Below the pieces are notes generated by a model. The model had not been told where the DNA came from, did not search any database, and saw nothing but the letters and a program-made list of their open reading frames with translations. Below are positions 7,501-29,596 of a stretch of DNA of 35,598 nucleotides, one piece after another. The translations under genes were made by a program, and so were the position numbers. Position 1 is the stretch's first letter. Each line of letters opens with the position of its first letter. The stretch is from Candidatus Anoxychlamydiales bacterium (lineage in GTDB: Bacteria; Chlamydiota; Chlamydiia; Chlamydiales; SM23-39), in assembly GCA_011064745.1 (NCBI GenBank), contig JAAKFJ010000003.1, positions 1 to 35,598 on the forward strand, given 5' to 3'.

Positions 7501-8226
7501 CTATTTCCGATTCTTGATTTGGAATGTGTATAATATGATAGCGGCTGCCCCTGCTACGTTTAAAGACTGCAACTGACCACTCATTAGAATATGAACTTTA
7601 TAATCTGATTTTTTGAGTAAAAGTTTTTGAATCCCCTCTCCTTCAGAACCCATTATCAAAACAGTTTTTTTCGGAAATTTAAATTTATATAAATCTTGAG
7701 AATTTTCATCTAAAACTGTTGATATGACAGAAAAGCCTGCATCTATAAAAAGATCTAAGCTATTTGCTAGATTAGAGACTTTTATTAAATCTATAAGCTC
7801 TGTAGCACCAGAGGCTGCTTTAGAAACTGTCGGGGTTATATCTGAGCCTCTATTTTTAGAAAAGATAACACCGTCTACTGAAAAGCAATTAGCAGATCTT
7901 AAAATAGCACCCAGGTTTTGTGGATCGAAAATATTATCTAACATTAAGACTAATAAAGATTCTTTATCTTCATTTTTTTTAAAAAAATCTTTTAGATTAA
8001 AGTAATTTCTGTCTTTTATTTTGGCGATAATATTTTGGTGGGATTCAGATTTTACCATCGAAGATAGAGTCTTCTTAGAAACAAATTTTAGAGTAATGTT
8101 TTTATTTTTTAGATCTTGGATTAGAGGATCTGTTTTATCCTTAGAGGTGAATATTTCTAAAAGAGCAGAGCTCTTATACTTTAAAACCTCTGAAATAGTA
8201 TTTTTTCCCATTATCAAATTGCTCAT
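7501..8226 (-). CDS. rlmB: 23S rRNA 2'-O-methyltransferase RlmB (SPOUT/TrmH family)
   Basis: 'HQNIIA', 'LDNIFDPQNLGAILRSA', 'MGSEGEG', 'SLNVA'; likely start MSNLIMG at 8226, ATGA overlap with the SET gene stop. Confidence 0.9.
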   Translation of the reverse strand: MSNLIMGKNTISEVLKYKSSALLEIFTSKDKTDPLIQDLKNKNITLKFVSKKTLSSMVKSESHQNIIAKIKDRNYFNLKDFFKKNEDKESLLVLMLDNIFDPQNLGAILRSANCFSVDGVIFSKNRGSDITPTVSKAASGATELIDLIKVSNLANSLDLFIDAGFSVISTVLDENSQDLYKFKFPKKTVLIMGSEGEGIQKLLLKKSDYKVHILMSGQLQSLNVAGAAAIILYTFQIKNRK

Positions 8227-8879
8227 TTTGCTCCGATTGGGTTTTCTCTTTTTTTCCAATAAAAAGGGCCATAATTATAAGTTAGCTCTTCATTTTTTTT
8301 TATGACTCTTTTGGTTCTAAAAATTATGTGGATAGCTCCATTTAAATAGACAGAAAGCGGACTAACATTCGGTTTAAAGCTATGGTTCACAAATCTTATC
8401 AAAGAGCCCTCTTCTCTAGCATCGATGGTATAGGGTGTTTTTTTATAACCTATAGAATACTCAAAAAGATATGAATTTTTATCATCCATAATTTTTCGAT
8501 ATTTTCTGACATTGCCGGTATATTCTCCTAAAAACTCTCTAATCTTAAAATCTTTATTAGCAAAAAGCCCATACTCTTTAGTAGAATCAATCCATTTGAT
8601 ATAGACATCGGGGATAAAATGAGCTTTGATTTCTTTTTCATAATACGTGCCAAACCAAATATTTTCTTTGGTTAAAAGACCTTCTCTACCCGCTTTGATA
8701 CATATTTTATTAATTTTTTTTAATATTCTTGGAGTATCGAAGTGCAAAGTTGGTATATATTTAATCTCGAGCAGGTCTTCAAATTCTTTTTTTGTATAGA
8801 CAAAAACCTTGCCGTCTCGCTTAATTTTAAATAGGTAGTCGTCTTTCATAAAAAATATTTGTTTTAATTTATTATACAT
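8223..8879 (-). CDS. SET-domain protein-lysine methyltransferase (chlamydial NUE/cpnSET-like)
   Basis: 'YGLFA', 'EYTG', 'IDA..GSLIRFVNHSFKPN', 'EELTYNYG..YW'; start could be 8849. Confidence 0.9.
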   Translation of the reverse strand: MYNKLKQIFFMKDDYLFKIKRDGKVFVYTKKEFEDLLEIKYIPTLHFDTPRILKKINKICIKAGREGLLTKENIWFGTYYEKEIKAHFIPDVYIKWIDSTKEYGLFANKDFKIREFLGEYTGNVRKYRKIMDDKNSYLFEYSIGYKKTPYTIDAREEGSLIRFVNHSFKPNVSPLSVYLNGAIHIIFRTKRVIKKNEELTYNYGPFYWKKRENPIGAK

Positions 8880-12922: not shown

Positions 12923-14914
12923 TTATTGCGATGGTTTAGCCCAACCAAATTCTTTTGGAAGCTGTAGCGCAGGAGCGGGTCCAGTTGAAGCTTTTGCTCC
13001 TGGTGCTGATCTCGCTGATGGCATCATCTTAGAAAAATCCATAGGTGGTGGCGCATTGCGACGACGAACTGGTCCAGTGTCTGTGTCTGGTTTAACTACT
13101 GTTCTTGATGATGGCATCCCAAAATCCATGGGTGGTGGCTTGCGACGAACTGGTCCAGTGTCTGTGTCTGGTTTAACTACTGTTCTTGATGATGGCATCC
13201 CAAAATTCATGGGTGGTGGCTTGCGACGAACTGGTCCAGTGTCTGAGTCTGATTTAACTACTGTTCTTGATGATGGCATCCCAAAATCCATAGGTGGTAG
13301 TTTTTTGCCACGAGGTTCAGTGCTTGAAACCGCTGATGCTCCTGGTGCTGGTCTCGATGATGGCATCCCAAAATCCATATGTGGTAAGGGACGATCTCGT
13401 TGAAGGCTTGAAACTGCTGCTACTGCTCTATTTGTGGGCATTCCCAGCCCTGTATAGGATGATGAGCTGGCTGCGCTAACTGTAGGTGCAATCTCTTTTA
13501 ACTCCTTTAAAAGCTGTAATACTTGAGATGCATTGGGTCGATCCTCTGGTCGATGTTGTTTGATCTTGCAGACTGTCTCATATAACTTTGAAGTGAAAGG
13601 GTCAGTTTTAATGTGTCGTTTTTTTCTTTGTATTTCAGGTTCTTCATTTTTACCTTCGGCTGGGAAGATAGGGAGAGAATAAATATCATATTGATCTTTA
13701 ACAAAATTAGTAGGATTTTTATAAACATCTGGCCAGAGAACTTCCATGAAAAATTCTTCAATCATATGTCCAAAAGCGTATATATCAGAGGTTTGAGAGT
13801 CAAACTTGGAGAAATCTGCAGCCTGAGCAATGTACTTTTCTTTTATTTTGGCTGCTATTGATTGTTTTTCTTTCTCATCTATTTCAGGATTATTGAGTAT
13901 TTCTTCTTGTTCTTTTTCTATCTTAGCAAACACTTCTCTTATTTGTTTTGTGTCAGGCTTCCAGTTTTTTTCATCCCAAGGAAAAACTTCTGGCCCGCAA
14001 ATAGGTAAAGAAGTTTCGGATACCGATTCTCCTATTTTAGTTAAGCGATCAAAATCAGTAAGAATTGGGTGAGAATTCCCATCTTCCCCTATATCTTCAA
14101 GAATATTATCGCATTTTAAATCATTGTGTTCCAATTCTTTACCGTGCAAGTCTACCAAGATTTGGCAAAGTTCGGTCAAGAAATCGATTTTTTGCATATC
14201 AGTCCACTTGGGGCGGGGTTTTTTAAAGAGGTGTGAAAGAGTTTTAAAACAAGAAAGATCGCCTCGATAAGCAGGTTGTACCCAAGCTGTTTTTTTAACT
14301 TCTGTTTTCTCATTTGTCTTTGTATCAATTATAGCATTACCCGAATAGTTTATGATATATTGGGTTCGAATTAATCCTGGCACATTAAGCTTGTTGAGTT
14401 TAGGAAGCAATTGCATCTCATTGTCAATGCCTTTTTGAACATCACCTGTGGCATTAATTTGAGATAAAAACGCGATAGGACGCTCTTCATTCAAAATAGC
14501 TTTTTGAACCTTTTTTAAAGCTCCATCTCCCAATTTATCTTTTGCTTTACCAAATAACAGAAAAATTTGACCATCCGATGTCACCATCGCTTTGATTTTT
14601 ACAATAGTTTTATTTTTATCATTTAATTGTACTTGTGTCACTTCAAATTTTCTTCCGTCAACCTCTAGGTGTTTTTTTGACAATAACATAGATGCTATGG
14701 CACTTGAGCCTATTAGAAGACTACTTAGGGACACTGGTGGTTCCATCTCTTTTATCCATGTGCCTTTTTGTGCTTCAATCTCTTGAATAACATTTTCCAC
14801 TATCTTGTCTATATCAGCTCTTTTTTGAAGAGATGCAGGGAATAACTCTTTAAAAGCTTTATGGTCTAAAGCAGAGAATGATCCACTAGGATCTGGACTT
14901 GGAATAGTTGCCAT
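12923..14914 (-). CDS. Atypical Ser/Thr protein kinase with Pro-rich repeat C-tail (putative effector)
   Basis: LGDGALKKV, alphaC 'NEMQLL', 'HNDLKCDNIL', 'TDFD', 'GPE', 'SDIYAFG', 'RPEDRP'; start MATIPS at 14914 with GAGG RBS. Confidence 0.82.
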   Translation of the reverse strand: MATIPSPDPSGSFSALDHKAFKELFPASLQKRADIDKIVENVIQEIEAQKGTWIKEMEPPVSLSSLLIGSSAIASMLLSKKHLEVDGRKFEVTQVQLNDKNKTIVKIKAMVTSDGQIFLLFGKAKDKLGDGALKKVQKAILNEERPIAFLSQINATGDVQKGIDNEMQLLPKLNKLNVPGLIRTQYIINYSGNAIIDTKTNEKTEVKKTAWVQPAYRGDLSCFKTLSHLFKKPRPKWTDMQKIDFLTELCQILVDLHGKELEHNDLKCDNILEDIGEDGNSHPILTDFDRLTKIGESVSETSLPICGPEVFPWDEKNWKPDTKQIREVFAKIEKEQEEILNNPEIDEKEKQSIAAKIKEKYIAQAADFSKFDSQTSDIYAFGHMIEEFFMEVLWPDVYKNPTNFVKDQYDIYSLPIFPAEGKNEEPEIQRKKRHIKTDPFTSKLYETVCKIKQHRPEDRPNASQVLQLLKELKEIAPTVSAASSSSYTGLGMPTNRAVAAVSSLQRDRPLPHMDFGMPSSRPAPGASAVSSTEPRGKKLPPMDFGMPSSRTVVKSDSDTGPVRRKPPPMNFGMPSSRTVVKPDTDTGPVRRKPPPMDFGMPSSRTVVKPDTDTGPVRRRNAPPPMDFSKMMPSARSAPGAKASTGPAPALQLPKEFGWAKPSQ
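13063..13298. repeat. Intragenic 81-bp tandem repeat, about 3 copies (27-aa unit)
   Basis: Units begin 13063, 13144, 13225 (GACGAACTGGTCCAGTGTCTG...GATGATGGCATCCCAAAATCCAT); further partial copy about 13356-13378. Confidence 0.95.
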
Positions 14915-15268
14915 TTTTTCCTCATTATTTATTATTGTACTGTAATAACTACTAATTATTAAAAATATTATAACATTATTATGAATTGTATTCAATGACA
15001 AATTAGTTTTTTAAAAAAAAATTATTATAGAATAAATTCTTTTTTTATGGCCTTGATACGCGAGTTTCTATGAAGTATTTTCTTGAATTCAACAAACCTT
15101 TTACATTAAATATTTAGTAGTCTTTTTATAATAATTACTGATATACAGCTCTATTCTTCTTTTGTGTGTTTTTCTACATCATATCCATCACCACCTATTT
15201 AACTCTCGTCAAGTAGTGAATCTGGACCTCCGATTTTACCTTTCATAGTAAGTAAATCATCTTCTTGA

Positions 15269-15796: not shown

Positions 15797-15853
15797 AAAC
15801 CTCTCCTATTTAATAAAATTAAAATCTTGTGATGATAAGAGCTTGAAAAGATA

Positions 15854-15887
15854 AACGCTATGATTTTTTTTTAAATTTCATAGCGTT
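15854..15887 (-). terminator. Inverted repeat downstream of adc, probable operon terminator
   Basis: Perfect 10-bp arms AACGCTATGA / TCATAGCGTT with 14-nt loop; followed by TATCTTTT on minus strand. Confidence 0.55.
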
Positions 15888-15951
15888 ATAAAAAACTGTG
15901 TTAAGCCTTCAGAAAAATCACATTAAGATCTAAATAAGTTGCTTATCAATT

Positions 15952-16695
15952 TTATTTTTTCTTTAGATAATCATGAACAACGCTTCCATAACCTAAAGTC
16001 AAATCTGATACAAAATGAGAAGCTGAGACTATTTCAAGAATTGGTAGATCGGCAACTGGCGCTAAAGCATGGGGATGCAACTCTAGTTGAGCCGGACCGC
16101 TCCAAGCACCTTTAATTTTTATATTTGTGGCAGCATATTTTACTAATTGGCATATTTTTAATTTCCCGTTGACATCTGGAATAATTTTAATTAAGAATTG
16201 AGGTTCTTTCATAGATTTTAAAATCGCATTTTTATTTAGCTCTTTATATTTATATCCCATGGTTCCTGTTGCCACTCTTATAGATCCATAATCTAAAGTG
16301 CCAATTAGAGTATCTTTTTCTACTTTTAAAGTCGGATAGGCTAACTTTTTTGGAAATCCCCAAATCTCTCTACCACCTGAGATAGGCGATTCACAATCTA
16401 AATACATAGAGTGAACATAGCCACCGGATTTGCCTCTGTACGTTATGGGAATTACCTGGCCTGATTCAGTATAATCACCAAAACCCATAGAATCTGGCAT
16501 TCTGATAAATTCATATTTTACAAGAGGCTCTTTAATCTCTAGAGGTTCCGGCACCACTTCTCTTAGGGCATCCATATCCGTTTTATAAGTAATTATTAAG
16601 TATTCTCTATCGACAAAACGATATGGTCCTTTAGAGTAGCTAGGAGAACTAAGAGGCATGCCATAAGCTTTTTTCAGAATGTCTTTTTCTTTCAT
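15952..16695 (-). CDS. adc: Acetoacetate decarboxylase
   Basis: '[23 protein letters not shown]', '[18 protein letters not shown]', Schiff-base '[10 protein letters not shown]', '[15 protein letters not shown]'. Confidence 0.93.
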
Positions 16696-16707
16696 ATTTT
16701 TTCCAAT

Positions 16708-17907
16708 TCAAGCTTTTTTTTGTTTTTGATAAAGCTCAAAAGTATGTTTAGCAATCATTATCTCTTCATCGGTTGGAATAACCCAAATAGATACTTTTGA
16801 ATTTTTTGTACTAATTTTTTCTACTCTTTTTCTGCAGGCGTTATTTTTTTCTAAATCTAACTCAAGACCTAACCAAGTAAGCTTTTTTACTACCATTTGT
16901 CTTATTTCAGGTGAATTTTCACCAATGCCCCCTGTAAAGACAAAACCATCTAAACCTTGAAGCTCAGAGGTTAAACTACCTGCAAAAAGAGTTATTCTAT
17001 GCACAAAAATATCAACGGCTAATTTTGCATCCGGATGATCGCTTTTTAAGAGTTTGGCCATATCAGATGAAATGTTCGATACTCCTAGAAGACCCGATTC
17101 CTTGTAATAGAGATTTTGAACTTTCTCAGCCGACCAACCTAATTGATCCATCAAGTAAACCCCAAGATATGGATCAACATCCCCAGGCCTTGTAGCCATT
17201 GGCAGACCTCCCATAGATGTAAGACCAATAGATGTCGCTAAACTTTTTAGATTTTCTATCGCACACATGGTAGCCCCGCCACCTAAATGAGCAACTATGA
17301 ATTTAGCATTGGCTTCTTTTTGAGACATGTACCCTGGCAGTTTTGATGCTATATATTCATAAGAGAGTCCATGAAAACCGTATCTTCTAATTCCTAAACT
17401 GGTTAAAGATTTAGGAAGTGCGTAGCTTTGAGATATTGGATCGCAAGTCGAGTGAAAAGCAGAATCGAATGTAGCTACTTGAAAAAGATTTTTAAACTCT
17501 TCTTTAAAAAAGATATAACCATTTAAATTATAAGGTTGATGAAGCGGAGAGAAAGGAATTAAAGATTTTAAATGTTTAACAACCTCATCATCGAAAACTA
17601 TAGATTCTTTATAATCACCACCATGCACAATTCTGTGACCTGCAGCGATTAAATTGATATTTTTTTGTTTCGTCCAATCTAAAATAAAATGAAGAGTTTG
17701 TTTTACATATGTATTTGAGTCCCCTGCAACCTTTAAATCTTCATCTATCTCTTTTGCACTGCTCTCTTTTATAATCTTGATGTGAGGTTTGTCTGATAAC
17801 CCTGTAACAGAGCCTGAATATTCTCTTTTCATTTCATTTCCATGGATAGAAAAGATTGAAAATTTCATTGAAGAAGAACCGGTATTTAAAACGATTAGAC
17901 TATCCAT
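16708..17907 (-). CDS. ackA: Acetate/short-chain fatty acid kinase
   Basis: 'LNTGSSSMKF', 'GHRIVHGG', 'PLHQP', 'RRYGFHG', 'FTGGIGENS', 'IPTDEE'. Confidence 0.9.
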   Translation of the reverse strand: MDSLIVLNTGSSSMKFSIFSIHGNEMKREYSGSVTGLSDKPHIKIIKESSAKEIDEDLKVAGDSNTYVKQTLHFILDWTKQKNINLIAAGHRIVHGGDYKESIVFDDEVVKHLKSLIPFSPLHQPYNLNGYIFFKEEFKNLFQVATFDSAFHSTCDPISQSYALPKSLTSLGIRRYGFHGLSYEYIASKLPGYMSQKEANAKFIVAHLGGGATMCAIENLKSLATSIGLTSMGGLPMATRPGDVDPYLGVYLMDQLGWSAEKVQNLYYKESGLLGVSNISSDMAKLLKSDHPDAKLAVDIFVHRITLFAGSLTSELQGLDGFVFTGGIGENSPEIRQMVVKKLTWLGLELDLEKNNACRKRVEKISTKNSKVSIWVIPTDEEIMIAKHTFELYQKQKKA

Positions 17908-17910
17908 TTT

Positions 17911-19089
17911 TTACCTTTCTATTGCCATAGCAATTCCCATGCCACCACCTATGCATAGAGTTGCTAGACCTTTTTTAGCATCTCTTTTGATCATCTCAAA
18001 TAATAGAGTAACTAAAATTCTAGATCCAGAAGCTCCTATTGGATGACCAAGGGCGATTGCTCCACCATTAACATTTACAATATTTGGATCTAACCCAAGC
18101 TCTTTATTAATGATAACAGCTTGAACAGCAAAAGCTTCATTGATTTCTAATAGATCAAGATCTTTAATGTTCCAATTAGCTTTTTTTAAACATTTTTGAG
18201 TGGCGCTCATCGGTCCTATTCCCATATATTTCGGATCAACCCCAACACTCGCTGTGGCAACAATTTTAGCAAGGGGTTTTAAGTTTAGCTCTTTGGCTTT
18301 TTTAGCGCTCATGACAATAACAACAGCTGCTGCATTATTTAGACCTGAAGAGTTTCCAGCTGTAACAGTGCCGCCTTCTTTAAAAGGACAAGGCAATTTA
18401 GCTAAAGACTCTAGAGTTGTATTAAACCTGGGATGTTCATCGGTATCAAAAATAATCGGATCTTTTTTTCGTTGGGGTATGCTAATCGGGATTATCTCAT
18501 CTTTGAACTTATTATTTTCAATCGCATTTTTTGCTCTCATTTGTGATTCACAGGCATATTCATCTTGCTCTTTTCTGGAAATATTATATTTCTCAGCTAA
18601 ATTCTCAGCTGTCACTCCCATATGATAGTGATTATAAGCATCGAAAAGTCCATCTTTAATCATGCTATCTATTAACTTCCAATCCCCCATTCTTTTCCCT
18701 TGTCGAGAACCCAATAAAACATGAGGAGAAAGATCCATACTCTCTTGCCCACCAGCTATTATAACATCGGCATTTTGAGATAAAATTTTATGGGAAGCTA
18801 GTTCAATAGTTTTTAAACCAGAGCCGCAAACTTTATTAACTGTAAAAGCTGGAGTTAGGTAAGAAAGTCCAGCTCCAATACTAGCTTGTCTTGCTGGGTT
18901 TTGACCAGCGCCTGCTGTTAAAACTTGGCCCAAAATCACTTCATCGATATTCTCAGATGTCAGCTTTGTTCTTTTGCAAAGCTCTTTGATAAGATCTGCG
19001 CCCATTGTAGAGGCTGCAATATCTTTAGTTATTCCATTAAATTTTCCTATTGCAGTTCTTCCTGCTGCGACAATGACGACTTCATCCAT
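17911..19089 (-). CDS. atoB: Acetyl-CoA acetyltransferase (biosynthetic-type thiolase)
   Basis: 'NKVCGSG' (catalytic Cys), 'NEAF', 'GHPIGASG', 'CIGGG'. Confidence 0.95.
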   Translation of the reverse strand: MDEVVIVAAGRTAIGKFNGITKDIAASTMGADLIKELCKRTKLTSENIDEVILGQVLTAGAGQNPARQASIGAGLSYLTPAFTVNKVCGSGLKTIELASHKILSQNADVIIAGGQESMDLSPHVLLGSRQGKRMGDWKLIDSMIKDGLFDAYNHYHMGVTAENLAEKYNISRKEQDEYACESQMRAKNAIENNKFKDEIIPISIPQRKKDPIIFDTDEHPRFNTTLESLAKLPCPFKEGGTVTAGNSSGLNNAAAVVIVMSAKKAKELNLKPLAKIVATASVGVDPKYMGIGPMSATQKCLKKANWNIKDLDLLEINEAFAVQAVIINKELGLDPNIVNVNGGAIALGHPIGASGSRILVTLLFEMIKRDAKKGLATLCIGGGMGIAMAIER

Positions 19090-19100
19090 TTTTTCATCTC

Positions 19101-20027
19101 TTATAGGTTTTTGTGTTCATAAAACAGTTTTGCAAAAACACAAGATAGTGCTCTTTCCGCGGCGAGAGTATTTCTGCTATTTATTAAAATAGGCACTTTT
19201 GCCCCTAAAGCAAGTGAACCACATTGAGCTTTTGAAAAAATCTCTAATTGTTTTACTGCGATATTGCCAGCATCGAGATTTGGAAAAACAGCAATATCAA
19301 CATCGCCTGCTATCTCAGAGGGGAAATTTTTAGCCTCTGCAATTTTTTTATCAAAAGCAATATCAAAAGATAATGGTCCTTCAATAATTGCATTTTTAAA
19401 CTCACCCTCTTTTGCCATTTTAACAAGAGCCTCTGCATCCAAAGTTGATACAATCTCTTCTTTTACTTTTTCAAGACAAGATAATAAAGCAATTTTAGGC
19501 TTTTTAATTCCGATAGAATGTGCCACATCAATCGCATTTAAAATTATATCTTTTTTAGTTTTCAAATTCGGCAAGATATTGATGCCCACATCAGTATAGA
19601 TTAAAGGTTTTTTATAAAAAGGCGTATCGCAGATATAGCAATTACTAATTCTTCTATCTCTGATACCACTCTCTTTATTTAAAACAGCGCCGAGTAAAAT
19701 ACTTGTCTCTAATGAACCCTTTAAAATTGCTTTAGCCTCGCCTTGTTTTACAAGCTCAACGGCTTTTTTTGCAGCAGAGGTGCTATTTTCTGTATCAGAA
19801 ATACTGTGTTTAGATAAATCCTTACCTATTTTTTTTGCTATCTCTATCATCTTATTTTTAGGTCCAATAAAGATAGGATCAATAAGGCCTAAATCATAAG
19901 CTAAAAGAGCGCCTTCAATCGCTTGCTCATTTAATGGATAGGCTATTGCTATATTAATTCTTTTGGGAATTTTTAAAGCTTTCTCTAAAAAAAATTTATT
20001 TTTTTCTTGGAATAGATCTTCATTCAT
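19101..20027 (-). CDS. Phosphate butyryl/acetyltransferase (PTA/PTB family, Ptb-like)
   Basis: 'KGSLET', 'INILPNL', 'GPLSFDIA', 'PNLDAGNI..K', 'PILINSR'; 308 aa stand-alone. Confidence 0.88.
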   Translation of the reverse strand: MNEDLFQEKNKFFLEKALKIPKRINIAIAYPLNEQAIEGALLAYDLGLIDPIFIGPKNKMIEIAKKIGKDLSKHSISDTENSTSAAKKAVELVKQGEAKAILKGSLETSILLGAVLNKESGIRDRRISNCYICDTPFYKKPLIYTDVGINILPNLKTKKDIILNAIDVAHSIGIKKPKIALLSCLEKVKEEIVSTLDAEALVKMAKEGEFKNAIIEGPLSFDIAFDKKIAEAKNFPSEIAGDVDIAVFPNLDAGNIAVKQLEIFSKAQCGSLALGAKVPILINSRNTLAAERALSCVFAKLFYEHKNL

Positions 20028-20183
20028 AATTTAAATACCTAAATAATAAAGATTATTTTGTTTTGTCTCTCTTATTGCATTTAAGATAAAAAAAATAAAA
20101 TTGTAAAGAAAATAATAGAGAAGGAAAATCGTTATAATATTTAGAAAAAATTCTCAAATGGTTTAAAAGAAACTCAAATATGT

Positions 20184-22256
20184 CTAAAAAACTATAGCTT
20201 TAGCTTCAAAGCCATCTAATTTTATATTAATTTTAGATGAAAAATATGATTTATCTTCTTTTTTGTTAGTTATTATATTTTTAGCGCTTTTAAATTTAAT
20301 TTCAGAAACATCAAATTTCTCTTGAGCTTTTTTATTTGAAAAATTCATTGCAACTAGTAAATATGATTTATCTTGCAGCTGATACATCGCTAAAAATAAA
20401 GCTGAGTTTTTTACATCTAATATTTTTATTTGCTCTGCTAAATTTATTTTATATTTTTTTCGAGCCTTTAACATATTTTTTATAAAAGATGCATAGGAAT
20501 TAGGATCTTTTAATTGCTCTGGTAAAGAACCGTAAAGAGCTTTAGCTTTTGGTAGTTTTGAAGGACTTGCTTTTTGGTCAGAGGTTCCTAAAAGATCATA
20601 TGCTCCTCTATTTGTCCATCTACAATCCCCCTCTTCTAAAAGCTCTTTTATTTCAGATGCTTTTAAGGGATATGCTCCAACTAAATCCCAGCCAGATATC
20701 ATAAAAATTCCAGGTTGCATTGCATTGTAAAAAGCGAGTAATTGATGAGCTTTTTGTACGAACTTTTTTTGATCTTTTGTCATGTTATAAATATCTTTAT
20801 AACCGAGAGCTAAAGCACATAGCTCTACAAAAGTTGCACAAGGACCATATGATGTTTTTTTAACTACAATTGATAGATCCTTTTTTAATATCGCATCTTT
20901 AATTTCTTTTCCTGTGTATTTTTTTCCTTTATAGTCAAATTCTTCATCTGGATTTTCTTTAAATTCCTCTAACCCATATGATAAAGAATCGTGATTCTGA
21001 AGAGCATGAATAAATCTACTAGGTGGAATTTTTGCTTTATCGAGCAAAGAAATACTAAGTCTTAAAAAATCACTGTCCCCAGATAAAATTGCATGGGTAT
21101 AGCCAGGTCTTGTATTAAAATCATAAGAAAAATCAGCTCCAAATTCCAGCATCGCTTTTATATCTGCAAGAGATTGATGCAATTCTTGATATGTAATGCC
21201 GCCTATACTTTTTGCAAAATTTAATTTTCTTGTCAGCATCGATATTAAATTAGTTGCAACAGTAGAGAGGGGGTGTTCCTGAGAAAAGGCCGTCTCTTTT
21301 CCAGGTACAATTTCAACACCCAAATAACCATTAGCATCTAATCGAATGCCATTATTTTTTAAAACACCTAAAGATTCCATGATATCACCGGCTATTAATC
21401 TATCTGCTGCGAAAGTTGGATCTAACCAGTTAAGTGTTGGCTGGCCTGCATTATAATAGTGTAGATATACCCATCTTCTTGTTTTACCATCTGCTCCTTT
21501 TATTTTTTTTGTTGCACTCCAATTAGTAATTTTTTCGTCACTTGCGGCAAAAACACTTTGCAATTTTCCAACTATGTAGCCTTTTTTATATATCTTATCT
21601 ACCTCATCAAAATTTAAGTTTTTAGCAAATTCTTTTTTCTCAATTTTAGGAAGCAAGTTCCAATCTTTTTCATCTATCTCAACTAAATCATACAGACCTG
21701 GATAATCTTTATAGTTTAGCAGGGCTAGGATAAAATCAGCGCCAAGACCAGTGTGACCGGGTATTAAATCACCGAGAAGAGTGCATTTAAATGAGTGTAT
21801 AGTGTTTGCCATGTCAATATACTGATCTTTTGTTCCAAAGGTTGGATCTATCTTTAAAGAAATCCTATCAAAGCCTCCATCTATAGATGGCGTATGTTTT
21901 CCAGTTATTATTCCTCCGGCTTCCTTCATTGGGCCTGTATGAATACCATCGATTCCAATGTCTGTTAAAACTTTCCAAAGTTCTGGATCTGCCAGTGTTT
22001 CAATAACGGTTTTTCCTTTTTTAACAATTATAGATCTTGCATATGAATCCAACCAAACAGATGTTTTTTCTAATATTTCATTAGGTTTTGGATAGCCATA
22101 TGGATTTTGCCACTGGGCTTTTTTTCCTGAGTAGTTTCTAGCCAGTTTCTCTGAGTTATATAAAATCGAGTCTTTTTCAAGCTCTTCTACATTAAAATCT
22201 TGAAAAGAAAAAGATGCTATAAAAAAATATAGAGCAAATAAAAATGCGTATTTCAT
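20184..22256 (-). CDS. treS: Trehalose synthase / maltose alpha-D-glucosyltransferase (Pseudomonas stutzeri-type TreS, GH13) with signal-peptide-like N-terminus
   Basis: 'GIHTGPMK', 'PSIDGGFDRIS', 'GHTGLGADF', 'RRWVYLHY..GQPTLNWLDPTFA', catalytic 'RLDANG', 'QEL', 'LQNHD'. Confidence 0.85.
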   Translation of the reverse strand: MKYAFLFALYFFIASFSFQDFNVEELEKDSILYNSEKLARNYSGKKAQWQNPYGYPKPNEILEKTSVWLDSYARSIIVKKGKTVIETLADPELWKVLTDIGIDGIHTGPMKEAGGIITGKHTPSIDGGFDRISLKIDPTFGTKDQYIDMANTIHSFKCTLLGDLIPGHTGLGADFILALLNYKDYPGLYDLVEIDEKDWNLLPKIEKKEFAKNLNFDEVDKIYKKGYIVGKLQSVFAASDEKITNWSATKKIKGADGKTRRWVYLHYYNAGQPTLNWLDPTFAADRLIAGDIMESLGVLKNNGIRLDANGYLGVEIVPGKETAFSQEHPLSTVATNLISMLTRKLNFAKSIGGITYQELHQSLADIKAMLEFGADFSYDFNTRPGYTHAILSGDSDFLRLSISLLDKAKIPPSRFIHALQNHDSLSYGLEEFKENPDEEFDYKGKKYTGKEIKDAILKKDLSIVVKKTSYGPCATFVELCALALGYKDIYNMTKDQKKFVQKAHQLLAFYNAMQPGIFMISGWDLVGAYPLKASEIKELLEEGDCRWTNRGAYDLLGTSDQKASPSKLPKAKALYGSLPEQLKDPNSYASFIKNMLKARKKYKINLAEQIKILDVKNSALFLAMYQLQDKSYLLVAMNFSNKKAQEKFDVSEIKFKSAKNIITNKKEDKSYFSSKINIKLDGFEAKAIVF

Positions 22257-22327: not shown

Positions 22328-25048
22328 TCAAATCTTAAGGCTAACTTGAACGATGTTATCTTTTAGCTTTATAAATGAGAAACCCAAACTTTGGCAGATA
22401 TTTCTCATGTTTTCATTATCTTCAAACATATGAGAGAGAAGATGATCAATATTTTCATCTTTAGCTATTTTTATGATATTTTTTATAAGCTCTTTGCCGA
22501 TTCCCATTTTTTGCCATTTATCTTTAACCAGCAGAGAAAAAACCGCATCTTTGGAATTTACCAGTTTTGTAAATCTTGCTACCGCTAAAAGCTCTAGAGA
22601 CTCATCTTGATTTTTAAATTCAACAACGAGCGTTATTTCTCGATCATAATCTATATAACAAATTCGAATCAGTCTTTCATGCGCAGCTAAATCATCATAA
22701 TGCAAAGTTCTTAGATATTCTTGTTTTAAAGATTTTTCTGAGACACTTTTATAAAAATCTCTAACAAGAGGCTCATCATCAGGAACTATTGGTCGAATTG
22801 TTAGATCAATTTTATCATTTAACTTCCAATCAATCACATAATGAGTGGGATAAGCTCTTATAGCTAACTTTGGATACGAAACATCTTTTTCATATAAAAC
22901 AATTCTTGCATCTAACGCTATAATTTGATCACTTTTAGCTAAAAGAGGATTAATATCACACTCTTTGATTTCTGGAAATTGCGCAATTAAATTGCTAAAA
23001 TTAACCACTATTTTTTCAAGTTCATCTAAATTTATAGCTTTTTGACCTCTAAAGCCTTTTAAAGCTTTATAAATTTTTGTTCTCTCTATCAACCTTTTAG
23101 CTAAAGTGCTTGTAAGAGGTGGAATCGCGATAGCTTTATCTTTAAAAACTTCTACCAATTGCCCACCCGTTCCAAAAAGCATAATGGGGCCAAATTTTGC
23201 ATCTTCAGAGCTGCCTAATATTAGCTCATAACCATCTGCTTTGATCATCTTTTGAACTGTTACTCCATCAAAATCGTTTTCCCTGCCATGTTTTTTTAAA
23301 GACTCTTTTATCGCATCAAAAGCTTCAATTACTTCATCATCATTGTACAGATTGAGTTTCACGCCCCCAACATCTGTTTTATGCGTGATTTGATTAGAAA
23401 AAAGCTTTATTACCACGGGATAGCCAATTTTTTGAGCGTATGAAATAGCCTCGTTTTTATCCTTAGCGATATGGGTATCTACAATAGGAATTTCAAAAGC
23501 TTTTAGAACTTTTTTTGATTCAAATTCATTTAAAATAGTTCTATTTTCATCTCTTGCTTTTTTAATGATATCTGAGACGATTTTTTGTCTTTTTTGAATT
23601 TTTTCTTCAGTTTCAATTTCACTTTTCATTGTTGCAGTTTCATAGATCCCCGTTAAATTATAGTCATAGGCATGCATATAAGCAAAAGCCTTGCAAGCGA
23701 CATCGGGATATCTAAAACAAGGGATATCAGCATCTGTTAAAACTTTCATACCTTCTGCTACTGAAGAGGCTCCCATCCAGGCTCCAAAAATTGGTTTTCC
23801 AATGTCTTTAAATTCTTTAAGTTTATTTGCCACCGCTGTTGGTTCTGTCATAAATTGAGGCGTTAATATAACTAAAATCCCATCAACATTAGGATCATCT
23901 TTTATAATATCTACTGTCTTATAATATAAATCAGGCGAAGCATCTCCCAAAATATCGATAGGATTATTATGAGACCAGGCTTTTGGTAAAAATTGATTTA
24001 AAGCATCAAAAGTCTTATCAGATAATGTTGCTAATTTTGCTCCATTTATTATTAAACTATCAGTTGCAATAACAGCTGGCCCACCAGCATTTGTAACAAT
24101 CGCTAAATTAGGACCTCTTGCAATTGGCTGTTTAGAAAAGATCTCAGCCATACTAAAAAGATCTTCAATACTATCAACTCTTAAAACTCCTACCCGTTTC
24201 AATGCCGCATTAAAAACCTCAGAGCTGCCAACAAGCGCTCCAGTATGGGATTTGGCAGCTTTAGCCGACTCTTTCGTTTTTCCAGCCTTTATCAAAATAA
24301 TTGGTTTGGTTAAGGCAACTTCTCTTGCTGCCGATAAAAAAGATCTAGCATCTGAAATATTTTCCATATAAATCAAAATGCTGCGGGTATTGGGATCATT
24401 CCCAAAGTAATTAATCAAATCACCCCAATCAACATCGATCATGGAGCCTATCGACACAAAAGCGCTAAAACCAATATTTTCTTTCAAGCTCCAATCCAAA
24501 ACAGCAGTCCCCAAAGCACCAGACTGACTAATAAAGGCAATATTACCTTTTTTAGCCATATCAGCGGCAAAAGTAGCATTGAGATTAATACTTGGATTTT
24601 GGATCCCTAAACAATTAGGACCAATAATTCTGATTTTTTTTTTATTGGCTTTTATTTCATCTTCTAGTTTTTGGCCACTTGCTCCTAGTTCTTTAAATCC
24701 AGCAGATACAATTATAGCCCCATAAACATTTGCTTCTTCACACTCTTTTATAATGTTTGGAACTGTAACAGAAGGAGTCGCGATAATCACAAGATCAACT
24801 CTTTTAGGAATATCTTTTATGCTCTTATATGATTTGTGGCCTAAAACACTATCTCTTTTAGGATTAACAGCAAAAATTTCTCTTGCATCAGAGGTCTCAA
24901 GCAGATTTTCAAACAGAGCTTTTCCAACACTATTGGGTTTCTCTGTCGCTCCAATCACAGCTACAGTTTTGGGATTAAAAATATAATCTAAGTTGTTTTG
25001 CTCTTTATATAAAATATTTAAAGAGCGATCGAATTTATACTCTTCCAT
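22328..25048 (-). CDS. NDP-forming acyl-CoA synthetase family / C-terminal GNAT fusion (Pat/PatZ-like)
   Basis: CoA-binding '[13 protein letters not shown]', 'IIGPNCLG', 'SQSGA', 'SHTGAL', 'TNAGG', 'NPIDILGDA', ATP-grasp 'HKTDVGGV', GNAT '[10 protein letters not shown]'. Confidence 0.9.
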
Positions 25049-25911: not shown

Positions 25912-26415
25912 GTGCAGACAAATCTAAATTATAATTTTTTTAAAAGAAGCTTTTTAGAAAATCTACTCAGTTTTTTTGTTTTTGCAAGTATATCTTTCTC
26001 TCTTGAATCTTTCATCATTTGGATATTTTCTAAAACCGAAAATTTAATGCATCGCAAATGGATAATATCTAAACCCTATCTAGCTTTTTATGCTCTATAC
26101 TTTTTTACTCTCGCTTTTACTCTTTGGTCTTTTTGGAAAAAATATTCTTCCAGAATACTTAGATTAGCAACTGCTTTTTTCTCCATCATTTCTCTTTTAT
26201 CTATACTTTGGAACTACACTTTTTTAATTAAACATGACTATTTCATCAGCCAAACTGCAAGCTTATTCATCTTTTTTTCTTCCATAATTTTAAATATCTT
26301 GGCCTGGAAAAAAGATATAATATCTGCAATTACCTACTCATTCTCGGCCCTCTTATTTATTTGTTTGGAACATGTCAATTTCTATCACAAGGTATTAAAG
26401 GAGAAAGTTTTATGA
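25912..26415 (+). CDS. Membrane protein, possibly a divergent TspO/MBR family member
   Basis: About 5 hydrophobic segments in 167 aa, Trp-rich; 'LSILWNYTF' resembles TspO 'LNxxWxxxFF'; GTG start. Confidence 0.5.
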   Translation: MQTNLNYNFFKRSFLENLLSFFVFASISFSLESFIIWIFSKTENLMHRKWIISKPYLAFYALYFFTLAFTLWSFWKKYSSRILRLATAFFSIISLLSILWNYTFLIKHDYFISQTASLFIFFSSIILNILAWKKDIISAITYSFSALLFICLEHVNFYHKVLKEKVL

Positions 26416-26738
26416 AAACAACTGCCTATGTTTCTTTGATTTATGGCCTAATTATTATCTTAAGTGGAATTATGGCTTTTAGATTTGCGAACTCTATGGC
26501 GTCTCTTTTCATCGAGGTTCTAGCAGGGATAATAATCCTTGCAAATGTCTTTTTTATGATGCAAGAGAGGAAGTTTTCATTCTATCTTCTTTTTGTTATA
26601 TCTTTTTTACTTGCAATATTTTATGGATATAATTTTTCTCAAACCCAGCACTTCTTCGCAGGCATTTTAACCGCTGTTAGTTTCTTTATTTTTATAATGG
26701 AACTTTTAAAAATATTTAAGGTTTTTGGAGCTGAATAA
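26412..26738 (+). CDS. TMEM14-family small membrane protein
   Basis: Start MKTTAY with ATGA overlap and GGAG RBS; 'IYGLIIILSGIMAFRFANSMASL' matches the TMEM14 YG..GGxxGY..S..SL pattern. Confidence 0.65.
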   Translation: MKTTAYVSLIYGLIIILSGIMAFRFANSMASLFIEVLAGIIILANVFFMMQERKFSFYLLFVISFLLAIFYGYNFSQTQHFFAGILTAVSFFIFIMELLKIFKVFGAE

Positions 26739-27949: not shown

Positions 27950-29596
27950 ATGATCGCAAAAACTTGCAAGAATCTTATCTTAAACACCACTTTGATGTTT
28001 ATTTTCTTTTTAGCTTTTACTACTAATGCATATGCTCAAAGCTCATTTAATGAAGTTTATATGGCTTGCAAACAAAACAATTGGGTAATCGTCGATAAAA
28101 TTCCAAAAAGCACCTTAGATGTCTTGATAAATGAGACTGGTAGATCTTTGCTTTTAGAGGCTTTTTTTGAGAATGATCTAGATTTAGCTCAAAATCTTAT
28201 AAATCGAAAAATTGCACTTTTCGCTAAAGATTCAAGCGGAAAGAGTGCCCTTCACATGGCAACCTTTGCTAAACAATCATTGATGATTAAGCTTTTAAAC
28301 TATTTTGGGATTTGTGTTGATGAAGTAGATAATGATAATATGCGAGCAGTTGATTACTTAAGAGAATATCCAGAAGAGCAAAATCTACAAATTGTCGATC
28401 TTCTCACCAAATTGAGTAACCAAGAGAAGATTTTAGACGAAGAGCACCCCCTTTATACTTATAATTATCTCGAAAACCTTGTTTTACAAGGTGGTGGAGC
28501 TAAAGGGATTGCTTATGTAGGTGCAATTAAAGCTTTAGAAAAATTAGATGCTCTGCAAAATCTCAAAAGAGTATGCGGCACTTCAGCGGGTGCTATCACA
28601 GCCGTTTTTCTATCTTTAGGCTATAATTCTGAAGAGATGCACAATATTTTGATAAAAACAAACTTAAGTGACTTTTTAGATTATCCAATCACTGAAGAAA
28701 AAATTGTAAATCTTTATGAAAAGACTTCTTTTTCTGATATTTTAAAAGGGGCTTTAGATGAAGTTTATCAAATATTTAAAGATCCTCTCTCACTTATCAC
28801 CAACACTTTAGATTTCTTTAAAAATCTTTGGGATACGACAGGTCTTTGCGAAGGCGAGGATTTTAGACTTTGGATAGAACAAAAAATCTATGAAAAGACC
28901 AAAATAGAATATTGCACATTTAAAGAGTTAAGAAATCTATCTAAGATCACCTCAGCTATTAAACACCTGCATATATTTACAACAAGAGTTGAACCTTCAA
29001 TGCAGATTGTAGAGTTAAGCTCAGAGAATGAAATATACGATGATGTTATTATATCAGATGCTATTAGAGCATCAATGTCAATCCCAGGCGTTTTTAAGCC
29101 CCATACTCTGTACGTAAAAGATAATGAAAACAACCGCATAAAAAAAGATGCTTTTGGATTGTTTGTAGATGGGGGAGTTTTATATAACTATCCAATCGAT
29201 GCTTTTGATACTCTAAAATATCAAACAAGCTCGGTTACTAATAAAGATAAAGATTATATAAAACTTAACAAAAAAACCCTTGGTTTAAGTCTTTACACCC
29301 CAACTACTAAAGCTCAAAAACTAAACAGCTGTGAAAGCATAAGTGAATTTGTTTCAACATTAGCCCTATTATATTTTAATTCTGAAGCTCTCATTCATAA
29401 TTTAGAGACTTATGATAAGTATCGGACAATCGTAATAAATGATGAAGATATCAGCACTTTAGAATTTCAATTATCAGACGAGATGAAAAAAGCTCTAGAA
29501 GTATCTGGCGAAGTAGCGACGAATGAGTTTTTTAAAGAGCAACAAAAAAGGCTTAAAGAGATGAATCTTATTATACCAGCTCTTCAAACTCTCTGA
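27950..29596 (+). CDS. Patatin-like phospholipase A2 (ExoU/VipD-type) with N-terminal signal peptide and ankyrin repeats
   Basis: 'ENLVLQGGGAKG', 'GTSAG', 'RASMSIPGVF', 'DGG'; ankyrin-like 'GRSLLLEA', 'GKSALHMA', 'DNDNMRAVDY'; signal peptide ending AYA-Q. Confidence 0.88.
   Translation: MIAKTCKNLILNTTLMFIFFLAFTTNAYAQSSFNEVYMACKQNNWVIVDKIPKSTLDVLINETGRSLLLEAFFENDLDLAQNLINRKIALFAKDSSGKSALHMATFAKQSLMIKLLNYFGICVDEVDNDNMRAVDYLREYPEEQNLQIVDLLTKLSNQEKILDEEHPLYTYNYLENLVLQGGGAKGIAYVGAIKALEKLDALQNLKRVCGTSAGAITAVFLSLGYNSEEMHNILIKTNLSDFLDYPITEEKIVNLYEKTSFSDILKGALDEVYQIFKDPLSLITNTLDFFKNLWDTTGLCEGEDFRLWIEQKIYEKTKIEYCTFKELRNLSKITSAIKHLHIFTTRVEPSMQIVELSSENEIYDDVIISDAIRASMSIPGVFKPHTLYVKDNENNRIKKDAFGLFVDGGVLYNYPIDAFDTLKYQTSSVTNKDKDYIKLNKKTLGLSLYTPTTKAQKLNSCESISEFVSTLALLYFNSEALIHNLETYDKYRTIVINDEDISTLEFQLSDEMKKALEVSGEVATNEFFKEQQKRLKEMNLIIPALQTL

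Follow-up and report, generated by a model that had tools for sequence, protein, structure and literature searches.

A candidate natural operon for ATP-yielding acetone formation via acetoacetyl-phosphate in an anaerobic chlamydia

In the clostridial acetone pathway, thiolase forms acetoacetyl-CoA, a CtfAB-type CoA-transferase removes the CoA and acetoacetate decarboxylase (Adc) yields acetone, the genes thl, ctfAB and adc being laid out as type I and type II sol operons (relevant passages of PMC5343299). Two phosphotransacylase-kinase systems follow a different logic. The clostridial Ptb-Buk butyrate pathway converts a C4 acyl-CoA through an acyl-phosphate into the acid and ATP, and the short-Pta form of the Pta-AckA pathway pairs a PRK11890/PRK08190 protein with a PRK07058-type kinase, ptb preceding ack. 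According to the patent literature, engineered Ptb-Buk reportedly converts acetoacetyl-CoA into acetoacetate for the production of acetone, isopropanol or 3-hydroxybutyrate in gas-fermenting clostridia. Our literature search, which included work on Ptb-Buk, found no acetoacetyl-phosphate route. Adc can also be coupled in one locus to 3-hydroxybutyrate dehydrogenase (Bdh), which delivers acetoacetate by oxidation of 3-hydroxybutyrate and not by condensation of acetyl-CoA.

The locus described here lies in a window of 35,598 nucleotides (the whole stretch of DNA analysed) from an organism whose nearest named relatives are 'Candidatus Anoxychlamydiales' MAGs, in line with the chlamydia-like organism of the preliminary description. 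It resembles the clostridial acetone pathway in its thiolase, its Adc and its setting in an anaerobe fed by pyruvate:ferredoxin oxidoreductase (PFO). However, phosphotransacylase and kinase genes stand in the place of CtfAB, so that CoA removal would give ATP instead of acid re-assimilation. The chemistry we propose is that of the engineered route, in which the CoA-transferase or thioesterase step gives way to one that conserves ATP, but that route is man-made and uses a butyrate kinase, whereas the locus is a natural, conserved operon with a kinase of the Ack family.

Layout of the locus

The module consists of four co-directional minus-strand genes, ptb-thiolase-kinase-adc, spanning 15952-20027, and the ORF coordinates reproduce both this span and the intergenic gaps of 11, 3 and 12 nt reported in the preliminary description. 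In the order of transcription, the features are:

22328..25048, minus strand: ADP-forming acyl-CoA synthetase-like protein fused to GNAT (ACD-GNAT), 906 aa (Pfam CoA_binding_2, Succ_CoA_lig, ATP-grasp_5, GNAT)
20184..22256, minus strand: TreS-like maltose glucosyltransferase (TIGR02455), which separates ptb from the ACD-GNAT gene only in this window
20028..20183, minus strand: AT-rich spacer of 156 nt 5' of ptb, likely promoter region of the module (coordinates)
19101..20027, minus strand: short Ptb-like phosphotransacylase of 308 aa, opening the module (PF01515, PRK08190)
17911..19089, minus strand: biosynthetic-type acetoacetyl-CoA thiolase, 392 aa, between the ptb and kinase genes (Thiolase_N and Thiolase_C)
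16708..17907, minus strand: acyl kinase of the acetate/propionate family, 399 aa (PF00871, TIGR00016)
15952..16695, minus strand: Adc, 247 aa (PF06314, NF002614)
about 15854..15887, minus strand: hairpin 3' of adc with a 10-bp stem and a 14-nt loop, possible transcript end (fold)

The hairpin that had been noted downstream is indeed present, 65 nt past the adc stop. The surrounding 121-nt stretch (15835-15955, minus strand) folds at -22 kcal/mol (z = -2.37), a value equalled by 5 of 200 shuffles, and the consensus terminator scan does not return the hairpin. A consensus scan for sigma-70-type sites on the minus strand likewise gave none in 20028..20183, the spacer in which we would place the promoter. 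The four genes would presumably be co-transcribed.

Of the two upstream genes, the TreS-like one (596 bits to TIGR02455, cut-off 719) is missing from the corresponding loci of genus g51, where ACD-GNAT directly precedes ptb. The fusion protein, which 75 of the 103 family genomes encode, matches a protein acetyltransferase (9IT0, 465 bits) and an ADP-forming 4-hydroxybutyrate-CoA ligase (8WZU, 461 bits), and carries Ser-His-Thr-Gly where 9IT0 lacks the His; it is possibly a separate enzyme converting acetyl-CoA into acetate and ATP. The preliminary description had seen no CoA-transferase, thioesterase, 3-hydroxybutyrate dehydrogenase or PHA synthase in the window, and none of the four gave a Pfam match among the 32 ORFs of at least 100 aa that were scanned, which are all but one at 26361-26738 and four small ones close to the 3' end.

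Family assignments of the four proteins

The Ptb-like protein belongs to PTA_PTB (PF01515, 131.7 bits) and exceeds the cut-off of PRK08190 (325.9 bits, cut-off 282), but it falls below the equivalog models of both Pta (TIGR00651, 87 vs 311) and Ptb (TIGR02706, 235 vs 410). Among solved structures it matches C. acetobutylicum Ptb best (7VG9, 181 bits) and no canonical Pta chain at more than 55 bits, which places its sequence nearer to butyryl-type enzymes than to canonical Pta. All 24 members of its clade share motifs of their own beside the catalytic Ser-Arg. We infer from these features that it may accept acetoacetyl-CoA.

The kinase is a clear Acetate_kinase member (PF00871, 355.2 bits; TIGR00016, 356.4 bits, cut-off 293.4), with propionate kinases (about 250 bits) ahead of acetate kinases (about 239) among solved structures. 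Assignment to the butyrate kinases is ruled out by TIGR02707 (38 bits, cut-off 289) and by the 24 bits of the PDB butyrate kinase, and in this the module differs from Ptb-Buk. The kinase retains Val before His-Gly-Gly, Leu in Pro-Leu-His and Phe in Gly-Phe-His, positions that we take to be the small acetate pocket of the Methanosarcina acetate kinase; its clade also has changes of its own in two conserved kinase motifs. Activity on acetoacetyl-phosphate is a prediction, and we found no precedent for an Ack-family kinase using acetoacetate. Other Ack genes in the family form a different subfamily (32-39% identity), adjoining phosphoketolase in three of four cases examined.

The thiolase (Thiolase_N 312.8 bits, Thiolase_C 171.1 bits; PRK05656 595 bits; TIGR01930 476 vs cut-off 240) matches PDB thiolases at 490-510 bits and is most like biosynthetic PhaA/ThlA-type enzymes; 4N44, titled acetyl-CoA acetyltransferase and presumably a clostridial thiolase, scores about 493. 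The last protein is by family a true acetoacetate decarboxylase: it scores 292.7 bits against PF06314 and 428.1 against NF002614, whose curated cut-off for such enzymes is 150, it matches 3BGT (C. violaceum Adc, 365 bits), 3C8W (318) and 3BH2 (C. acetobutylicum Adc, 287), and the Trp-Gly-Phe-Pro-Lys-Lys stretch is kept in alignment with the PDB enzymes. The module genes are the genome's sole PTA_PTB, sole Acetate_kinase and, by tblastn, only thiolase genes. The search for bdh that had been proposed found no close Bdh in G000 (tblastn, best match 34% identity); with a single thiolase, this leaves acetoacetyl-CoA without another evident fate.

Distribution and other sources of acetoacetate

A synteny comparison across Chlamydiae, suggested at the outset, recovered the same four genes clustered in six further genomes of two other genera, and the arrangement therefore exceeds chance. 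Within the 103 genomes of the family, Ptb and thiolase each occur in seven, the same seven from three genera and always within the cluster; Adc and PFO are present in all of these, and Ptb never occurs without thiolase and Adc. One genus departs in gene order, G007 having adc-ptb-thl-ack where the others have ptb-thl-ack-adc, yet the set stays together. These observations support inheritance of the four genes as a unit. In a sample of 401 genomes of the order, the short Ptb type is confined to the six cluster genomes sampled; in other families Pta is long-form, its open frames measuring about 630-714 aa. Among the 23 PFO-bearing family genomes, 16 have no Ptb and all have ACD-GNAT; Pta-Ack is therefore not the general acetate route of the family.

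Beyond the chlamydiae, the nearest relatives of the pair are short-Pta Pta-AckA systems, sampled as 79 metagenome loci whose Ptb is 39-47% identical to that of the module (the kinases about 35-45%). Both families and their polarity are shared, with ack near ptb in 47 of the 79 loci, mostly directly downstream. In contrast, Adc is found in none of these loci and thiolase in one, so that a thiolase between ptb and ack is specific to the module clade. The module is further set apart by the attached adc, by clade-specific changes adjoining the Ptb catalytic Ser-Arg and in the two kinase motifs, and by our rating of both proteins below equivalog cut-offs. The distant pairs have typical acetyl-CoA producers as neighbours: pyruvate formate-lyase in 8 loci, its activase in 6, PFOR in 4 and serine dehydratase in 9. 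The ancestral ptb-ack pair was therefore probably acetyl-specific.

Where Adc occurs elsewhere, it is partnered with an acetoacetate producer: adc adjoins bdh in the four other Adc-bearing genomes of the family, from which PFO is missing, the bdh-adc pair recurs in three genomes of another chlamydial family, and Bdh lies within 2.5 kb of adc in 55 of 77 non-chlamydial loci. For the cluster genomes, a genome-wide check for CoA-transferases had been called for, and in families I, III and the acetyl-CoA-hydrolase type (G434 excluded) it found no PF01144 in seven genomes and neither PF13336 nor PF02515 in five. HMG-CoA synthase was likewise not detected in the five examined, and those tested gave no real Hbd, 3HCDH_N yielding only partial Rossmann matches of at most 30 bits, so there is no butyrate branch. 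With completeness of 86.6% for G000 and 91-94% for the other cluster genomes, such absences are not proof. The sole other candidate found for acetoacetate release is a 4HBT hotdog thioesterase of 161 aa, one per genome in five of five tested, which could hydrolyse acetoacetyl-CoA; it adjoins rplM-rpsI, occurs in 23 of 41 relatives, most of them without the cluster, and is housekeeping.

Proposed route and its alternatives

Based on the above data, we lean, with somewhat more confidence than doubt, towards a single fermentation module in a PFO-using anaerobic chlamydia that would turn acetyl-CoA into acetone with gain of ATP, the enzyme specificities being read from sequence. Thiolase would condense two acetyl-CoA into acetoacetyl-CoA, the phosphotransacylase would exchange CoA for phosphate to give acetoacetyl-phosphate, and the kinase would transfer this phosphate to ADP, releasing acetoacetate and ATP. 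Adc would then convert acetoacetate into acetone and CO2, an irreversible decarboxylation that would thereby draw the unfavourable condensation by thiolase forward. Overall, the conversion (2 acetyl-CoA + ADP + Pi -> acetone + CO2 + 2 CoA + ATP) would be redox-neutral with an uncharged end product. This is the four-enzyme chain first suggested for the locus, and it is supported in part: co-inheritance, the lack of detectable CoA-transferase, HMG-CoA synthase or Hbd, and the pairing of Adc with Bdh elsewhere argue for it, whereas the acetate/propionate-type kinase, the acetyl-CoA producers beside distant pairs and the thioesterase as a possible source argue against.

The describers of the Anoxychlamydiales read these genes as ACK and PTA making acetate (in the relevant passage of PMC7449678). 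An ordinary Pta-AckA pair (acetyl-CoA to acetate and ATP) could accordingly lie beside a separate acetone branch made of thiolase, an unlinked thioesterase such as the hotdog protein, which would conserve no energy, and Adc, the genes being clustered only as all drain acetyl-CoA. The acetate/propionate family of the kinase with its retained Val, Leu and Phe, the neighbours of the distant pairs and the presence of the thioesterase in every cluster genome tested are consistent with this arrangement, but that enzyme is a housekeeping one, Ptb never parts from thiolase and Adc in the family, 16 PFO-bearing genomes manage without Ptb, the thiolase gene is wedged between ptb and ack, and one transcript carrying two competing branches would be unusual. 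We consider it unlikely, if still a serious contender.

Phosphotransacylase, kinase and thiolase reactions are reversible, and the cluster might instead serve ketone-body catabolism, in which kinase and Ptb would spend one ATP to activate external acetoacetate to acetoacetyl-CoA, thiolase would cleave this into two acetyl-CoA, and the same pair or the ACD-like enzyme would form two acetate and two ATP (net one ATP), Adc only removing excess acetoacetate. The bdh-adc pairs of related chlamydiae suggest exposure to 3-hydroxybutyrate or acetoacetate, and among the products of the window are proteins of host-interaction type and a TLC-type transporter. Yet acetoacetate would be lost to the Adc encoded so tightly with the other three enzymes, the thiolase most resembles biosynthetic ones, the cluster has no identified acetoacetate transporter and G000 has no Bdh, which makes catabolism improbable. 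Slighter still is the likelihood that the genes share no pathway or act on another substrate, with Adc or thiolase handling another beta-keto acid or acyl-CoA (e.g. C5 from propionyl-CoA) or a transferred island clustered by chance. The propionate kinases heading the kinase's solved relatives and the patchy occurrence (7/103, three genera) fit such readings, but the Adc is close to characterised enzymes and far above its cut-off, and the set is kept across three genera despite reshuffled order, with gaps of only 3-12 nt.

For the acetone module that we favour, the Ptb/kinase pair may also take acetyl-CoA to acetate and ATP. Per acetyl-CoA, the acetone route would give half the ATP of the acetate route, which counts against it. 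If the pair does use both substrates, the module would be a branched acetate/acetone outlet, in which a phosphotransacylase and a kinase could replace a CoA-transferase.

Layout of the ptb-thl-ack-adc locus and its genomic setting

The preliminary description had placed a four-gene module between 15952 and 20027, and this observation is confirmed because the four open reading frames, the gaps between them, the family matches, the hairpin and the spacer are all found there. The open reading frames, as called, are:

19101-20027, minus strand: ptb, short Ptb-like phosphotransacylase
17911-19089, minus strand: thl, thiolase
16708-17907, minus strand: ack, acetate/propionate-family kinase
15952-16695, minus strand: adc, predicted acetoacetate decarboxylase (Adc)

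The coordinates give intergenic gaps of 11, 3 and 12 nt. An AT-rich spacer of 156 nt lies 5' of ptb, and a hairpin with a 10-bp stem is located 65 nt 3' of adc. The genes share one strand, are separated by very short gaps and keep their adjacency in seven genomes, a layout that predicts one operon and a single transcript. A consensus scan finds no minus-strand promoter-like site within the 156-nt spacer, and the 29 promoter-like sites that it returns are below the shuffle mean of 43; the hairpin downstream of adc is absent from the list of the terminator consensus scan.

The window comes from a 1.33-Mb assembly of 156 contigs (genome G000; 86.6% complete), in which it is contig C80. 'Candidatus Anoxychlamydiales' MAGs provide the closest named Adc loci (81-83% identity) among the best 80 of at least 567 Adc-encoding stretches. 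Elsewhere the window encodes a TLC/MFS-type nucleotide transporter relative (2326-3594, minus), a SET-domain protein (8223-8879, minus) and a patatin-like phospholipase that also matches ankyrin (27950-29596, plus), which are typical of a host-associated lifestyle. A eukaryote-like protein kinase with a weak Pkinase match (12923-15001, minus) carries, in its C-terminal half, several near-identical repeats, rich in proline, that end with Met-Asp/Asn-Phe-Gly-Met-Pro-Ser-Ser-Arg. On the other side of the module, a TreS-like maltose alpha-D-glucosyltransferase gene (20184-22256, minus; 596 bits to TIGR02455, under the cut-off of 719) separates ptb from the gene of an ADP-forming acyl-CoA synthetase-like protein with a GNAT domain (ACD-GNAT); it is absent from this place in the genomes of genus g51.

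Identity of the four enzymes

Adc scores 292.7 bits with PF06314 (cut-off 29.8), 428.1 with NF002614 (cut-off 150) over residues 1-245 of 246, and 365 bits with the Chromobacterium enzyme 3BGT. Its Trp-Gly-Phe-Pro-Lys-Lys stretch, whose two lysines we take to be the active-site pair, is aligned and identical to those of 3BGT and 3C8W. By family score the fourth gene is predicted to encode a bona fide acetoacetate decarboxylase that would convert acetoacetate into acetone. The second gene encodes both the N and C domains of thiolase (312.8 and 171.1 bits), scores 476 against 240 with TIGR01930 and reaches 490-510 bits with acetyl-CoA acetyltransferases of the PDB. In the printed alignment, its Val-Cys-Gly-Ser-Gly, Gly-His-Pro-Ile-Gly and Leu-Cys-Ile-Gly-Gly-Gly stretches, in which the catalytic Cys, His and Cys presumably fall, are identical to those of 8GQJ. 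These scores and motifs point to a biosynthetic (type II) acetoacetyl-CoA thiolase.

Ptb is a member of the Pta/Ptb family and the kinase of the acetate/propionate kinase family, and neither passes an equivalog model. Ptb matches PF01515 (PTA_PTB; 131.7 bits) and passes the phosphotransacylase part of subfamily PRK08190 (325.9 against 282). It falls below the canonical Pta equivalog TIGR00651 (87.3 against 311.2) as well as the phosphate butyryltransferase cut-offs of TIGR02706 (234.6 against 410.5) and PRK07742 (203.2 against 409). Its best solved relative is the Ptb structure 7VG9 (181 bits), solved Pta chains scoring 55 bits or less, which puts it closer in sequence to the butyryl type than to canonical Pta. 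The catalytic pair Ser284-Arg285 is invariant in alignment A2. All 24 members of the Ptb clade carry Thr or Ser at position +3 from this pair, where Asp is found in most proteobacterial-type relatives, and Glu at +7, a residue shared with Firmicute-type relatives. In excerpts of the CaPTB paper (PMC9706017), positions beside Ser-Arg are discussed as catalytic, an Asp three residues past the pair being proposed for Ptb and Asp316 being noted for Methanosarcina Pta.

The kinase passes TIGR00016 (acetate/propionate kinase; 356.4 against 293.4) and lies below the equivalog PRK07058 (364.3 against 486) and butyrate kinase TIGR02707 (38.2 against 289.1). Solved propionate kinases score about 250 bits, acetate kinases about 239, and the butyrate kinase structures 1SAZ and 1X9J 24 bits. 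In what we take to be the acyl pocket (Val93, Leu122, Phe179 and Pro232, Methanosarcina numbering), the kinase retains Val, Leu and Phe and has Ser in place of the Pro and Met-Gly in place of the Leu-Glu that follows. Two conserved motifs take a clade-specific form in the kinase, and the Asn of His-Leu-Gly-Asn-Gly is replaced by Gly or Ser in the clade. We rejected a residue-level call of acyl specificity as a basis for judgement: clade motifs are present, yet they give no criterion for separating acetyl from acetoacetyl substrates.

Distribution and origin of the module

The preliminary description had proposed a synteny comparison across chlamydiae; once run, it finds the module together in 7 of the 103 genomes of the window's family, namely G000, G007 from another genus and five of genus g51.

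Profile counts in the 103 genomes of the family
Ptb: 7
Thiolase: 7, the same seven as Ptb
Adc: 11
Pyruvate:ferredoxin oxidoreductase (PFO): 23
Acetate_kinase family: 42

The genes form one cluster in 7/7 of these genomes, split by contig ends in two of them, and PFO is present in all seven; it is a protein of about 1180 aa in the 5/5 tested, G000 included. PFO in the cluster genomes fits the anaerobic lifestyle described for Anoxychlamydiales in excerpts of PMC7449678. Three named Anoxychlamydiales loci carry ACD-GNAT, ptb, thl, ack and adc in the same order as the window; the order in G007 is adc-ptb-thl-ack. In a sample of 401 genomes of the order, only the six cluster genomes sampled carry the short Ptb type; Pta is of the long form in other families, its open frames spanning about 630-714 aa.

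An Adc tree built with 35 of 69 non-chlamydial rows (every second one), and leaving out the fragmentary G091, G135 and G353, groups the cluster-type Adc of genera g1 and g51 in one clade (support 100) and the chlamydial Adc encoded beside 3-hydroxybutyrate dehydrogenase (Bdh) in a separate clade (support 95). The Adc of the reordered cluster of G007 (L007:2758-3516) has a very long branch (1.58 changes per column; median, 0.11) and keeps the Trp-Gly-Phe-Pro-Lys-Lys active-site stretch.

Protein searches return about 24 close relatives each for Ptb (57-97% identity) and the kinase (59-94%), and all the named ones are labelled Anoxychlamydiales or Chlamydiota. Beyond this clade, Ptb identity is 47% or less, for example with Rickettsia bellii Pta and MaoC-Pta fusions. 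A metagenome scan with the Ptb alignment, restricted to the best 80 of 593 Ptb-like stretches, gives 79 distant loci; ack is near ptb in 47 of them, mostly directly downstream, adc in none and thiolase in one. Among the neighbours of ptb in these loci are DUF3141 and an MFS transporter (11 loci each), a FabI-like reductase (10), serine dehydratase (9), pyruvate formate-lyase (8), the activase of the latter (6) and PFOR (4). The ancestral unit is therefore the ptb-ack pair, found in acetyl-CoA contexts in at least some of the loci, and the chlamydial clade is set apart by the thiolase between ptb and ack and by the attached adc. Distant ptb-ack loci with such neighbours include L168, L171, L173, L201, L214 and L233. 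MaoC-hydratase fusions occur among the close protein relatives, and part of the short Pta/Ptb family may operate in C4 or polyhydroxyalkanoate metabolism. Since only the best 80 of at least 567 Adc-encoding and the best 80 of 593 Ptb-like stretches were covered, the module may exist outside chlamydiae.

Elsewhere in the family, Ack genes are of a different subfamily, share only 32-39% identity with the window kinase and mostly lie beside phosphoketolase (3/4 loci examined), which argues that the cluster kinase is a separate acquisition. This other subfamily is found in genomes that lack Ptb (L247, L249 and L250 of G015, G231 and G207, respectively). The ACD-GNAT protein of the window (22328-25048, minus; 906 aa) has the architecture of the enterobacterial protein acetyltransferase 9IT0 (465 bits) and keeps a Ser-His-Thr-Gly stretch that is missing from 9IT0; its His is presumably the phospho-histidine of active ADP-forming synthetases. 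The protein may combine acetyltransferase with active synthetase function. Occurring in 75/103 family genomes, with and without PFO, ACD-GNAT was rejected as an anaerobe marker. It is present in 23/23 PFO-bearing genomes, 16 of which have no Ptb at all; acetate and ATP formation may therefore not need Ptb and Ack here.

A proposed route from acetyl-CoA to acetone

We propose that acetyl-CoA would be condensed by the thiolase to acetoacetyl-CoA, which Ptb would convert into acetoacetyl-phosphate; the kinase would then release acetoacetate with formation of ATP. Adc decarboxylation is irreversible and the thiolase equilibrium is unfavourable; Adc would pull the chain to acetone. We lean slightly towards this acetoacetyl-phosphate route, in which the acyl specificity is predicted. 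The wider proposal stands about evenly balanced: that anaerobic chlamydiae carry out a natural, ATP-yielding acetone fermentation without CoA-transferase, by means of a phosphate acetoacetyltransferase and an acetoacetate kinase; that these two activities arose when a thiolase was inserted into, and Adc attached to, a horizontally acquired Pta-Ack pair; and that these sediment bacteria release acetone and CO2 beside or instead of the acetate and H2 presumed so far.

Its central step depends on how else acetoacetate could arise. The preliminary description had seen no CoA-transferase or Bdh gene in the window, and this extends to whole genomes: family-I CoA-transferase (PF01144) occurs in 0/7 cluster genomes, the control search finding the family in 6/14 reference genomes, and G000 has no close Bdh. 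Acetyl-CoA-hydrolase-type transferase, Family III CoA-transferase and HMG-CoA synthase are each found in 0/5 cluster genomes, the last of which led us to reject ketogenesis via HMG-CoA. G000 has a single thiolase. 3-Hydroxyacyl-CoA dehydrogenase (Hbd) gives partial Rossmann matches only, of 30 bits or less. With no true Hbd we rejected butyrate fermentation, and there is therefore no butyrate branch to supply Ptb with a butyryl substrate. These absences rest on genomes that are 87-94% complete, and because several independent assemblies agree, a missed CoA-transferase or other route is unlikely, not impossible.

The gene neighbourhood of adc elsewhere differs. The other four Adc-bearing genomes of the family (G015, G207, G443 and G453) lack PFO and have adc directly 3' of a 3-hydroxybutyrate-dehydrogenase-like SDR, as do G104, G248 and G310 from another family of the order sample; a more divergent SDR lies beside adc in G054, G166, G114 and G091, and G135, whose adc is at a contig end, was left out of this count. 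In the 77 non-chlamydial Adc loci obtained from the best 80 of at least 567, a Bdh homologue is found within 2.5 kb in 55, and ptb, thl or ack near adc in none. With bdh beside adc elsewhere and ptb-thl-ack in the cluster, Adc therefore generally adjoins the supplier of its acetoacetate. The bdh-adc pair recurs in aerobic-type chlamydiae and many Proteobacteria (Dyella, Rhizobium, Legionella), at L006:8319-9848 (G015), L114-L117, L251, L252 and 55 of L012-L088, which suggests a widespread outlet from 3-hydroxybutyrate to acetone. In the bdh-linked Adc of G015 (L006:9108-9848), the second Lys of the Lys-Lys pair is Thr. Of the 22 non-chlamydial Adc loci with no Bdh nearby (from the best 80 of at least 567), six encode a patatin-like protein with DUF3734 directly 5' of adc (L024, L044, L045, L051, L067 and L085).

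Several observations count against the acetoacetyl-phosphate route. The Val, Leu and Phe at the presumed acetate-pocket positions of the kinase would suit acetate, the ancestral ptb-ack pair looks acetyl-specific, and the ATP yield is half that of acetate formation. The describers of Anoxychlamydiales, in excerpts of PMC7449678, read these genes as ACK/PTA and plain acetate formation, which we also count against it. An ordinary Pta-Ack pair, with acetone formed via a thioesterase, is unlikely in our view, although a possible acetoacetate source exists: each of 5/5 cluster genomes encodes one hotdog (4HBT) thioesterase. This enzyme has no tie to the module, being encoded next to rplM-rpsI in G000 and present in 23/41 relatives, most of them without the cluster. 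In favour of the acetoacetyl-phosphate route we count the co-inheritance of the module and, as predictive features, the closeness of Ptb to butyryl-type enzymes, the changes beside Ser-Arg in 24/24 clade members and the kinase clade's own motif versions. The 16 PFO-bearing genomes that have ACD-GNAT and no Ptb also count in its favour. Inward use of ketone bodies is improbable, and other readings of the grouping are less probable still.

In operation the module resembles the clostridial thl-ctfAB-adc pathway, whose defining CoA-transferase is found in none of the cluster genomes (0/7). Its proposed chemistry is that of an engineered Ptb-Buk bypass, a route to acetoacetate that has reportedly been patented. 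To our knowledge, no natural pathway uses phosphate acetoacetyltransferase or acetoacetate kinase activity, and no natural ATP-conserving conversion of acetoacetyl-CoA into acetoacetate was known before. The literature searched gave no match for acetoacetyl-phosphate as an intermediate and no relevant pairing of acetoacetate decarboxylase with chlamydiae. A phosphotransacylase/kinase route to acetoacetate is not described in the excerpted texts of PMC6134114, PMC5343299, PMC9118988, PMC7147478, PMC11269201, PMC4862988 and bioRxiv 2024.07.15.603595, and neither acetone, acetoacetate nor thiolase comes up in the main text of PMC7449678, the paper on Anoxychlamydiales.

If correct, the acetoacetyl-phosphate route would be the first known natural ATP-conserving conversion of this kind, and would add two new substrate specificities to very well-known enzyme families. 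Metabolic engineers have sought an ATP-conserving route to acetoacetate for the better energy balance that it gives in making acetone, isopropanol and 3-hydroxybutyrate, and the module would offer ready-made natural parts. The published metabolism of Anoxychlamydiales, in which these genes serve plain acetate formation, would need revising, and acetone would be a further possible fermentation product of bacteria that abound in anoxic marine sediments. A neutral, proton-consuming product may suit a small, possibly host-associated fermenter that avoids an acid load.
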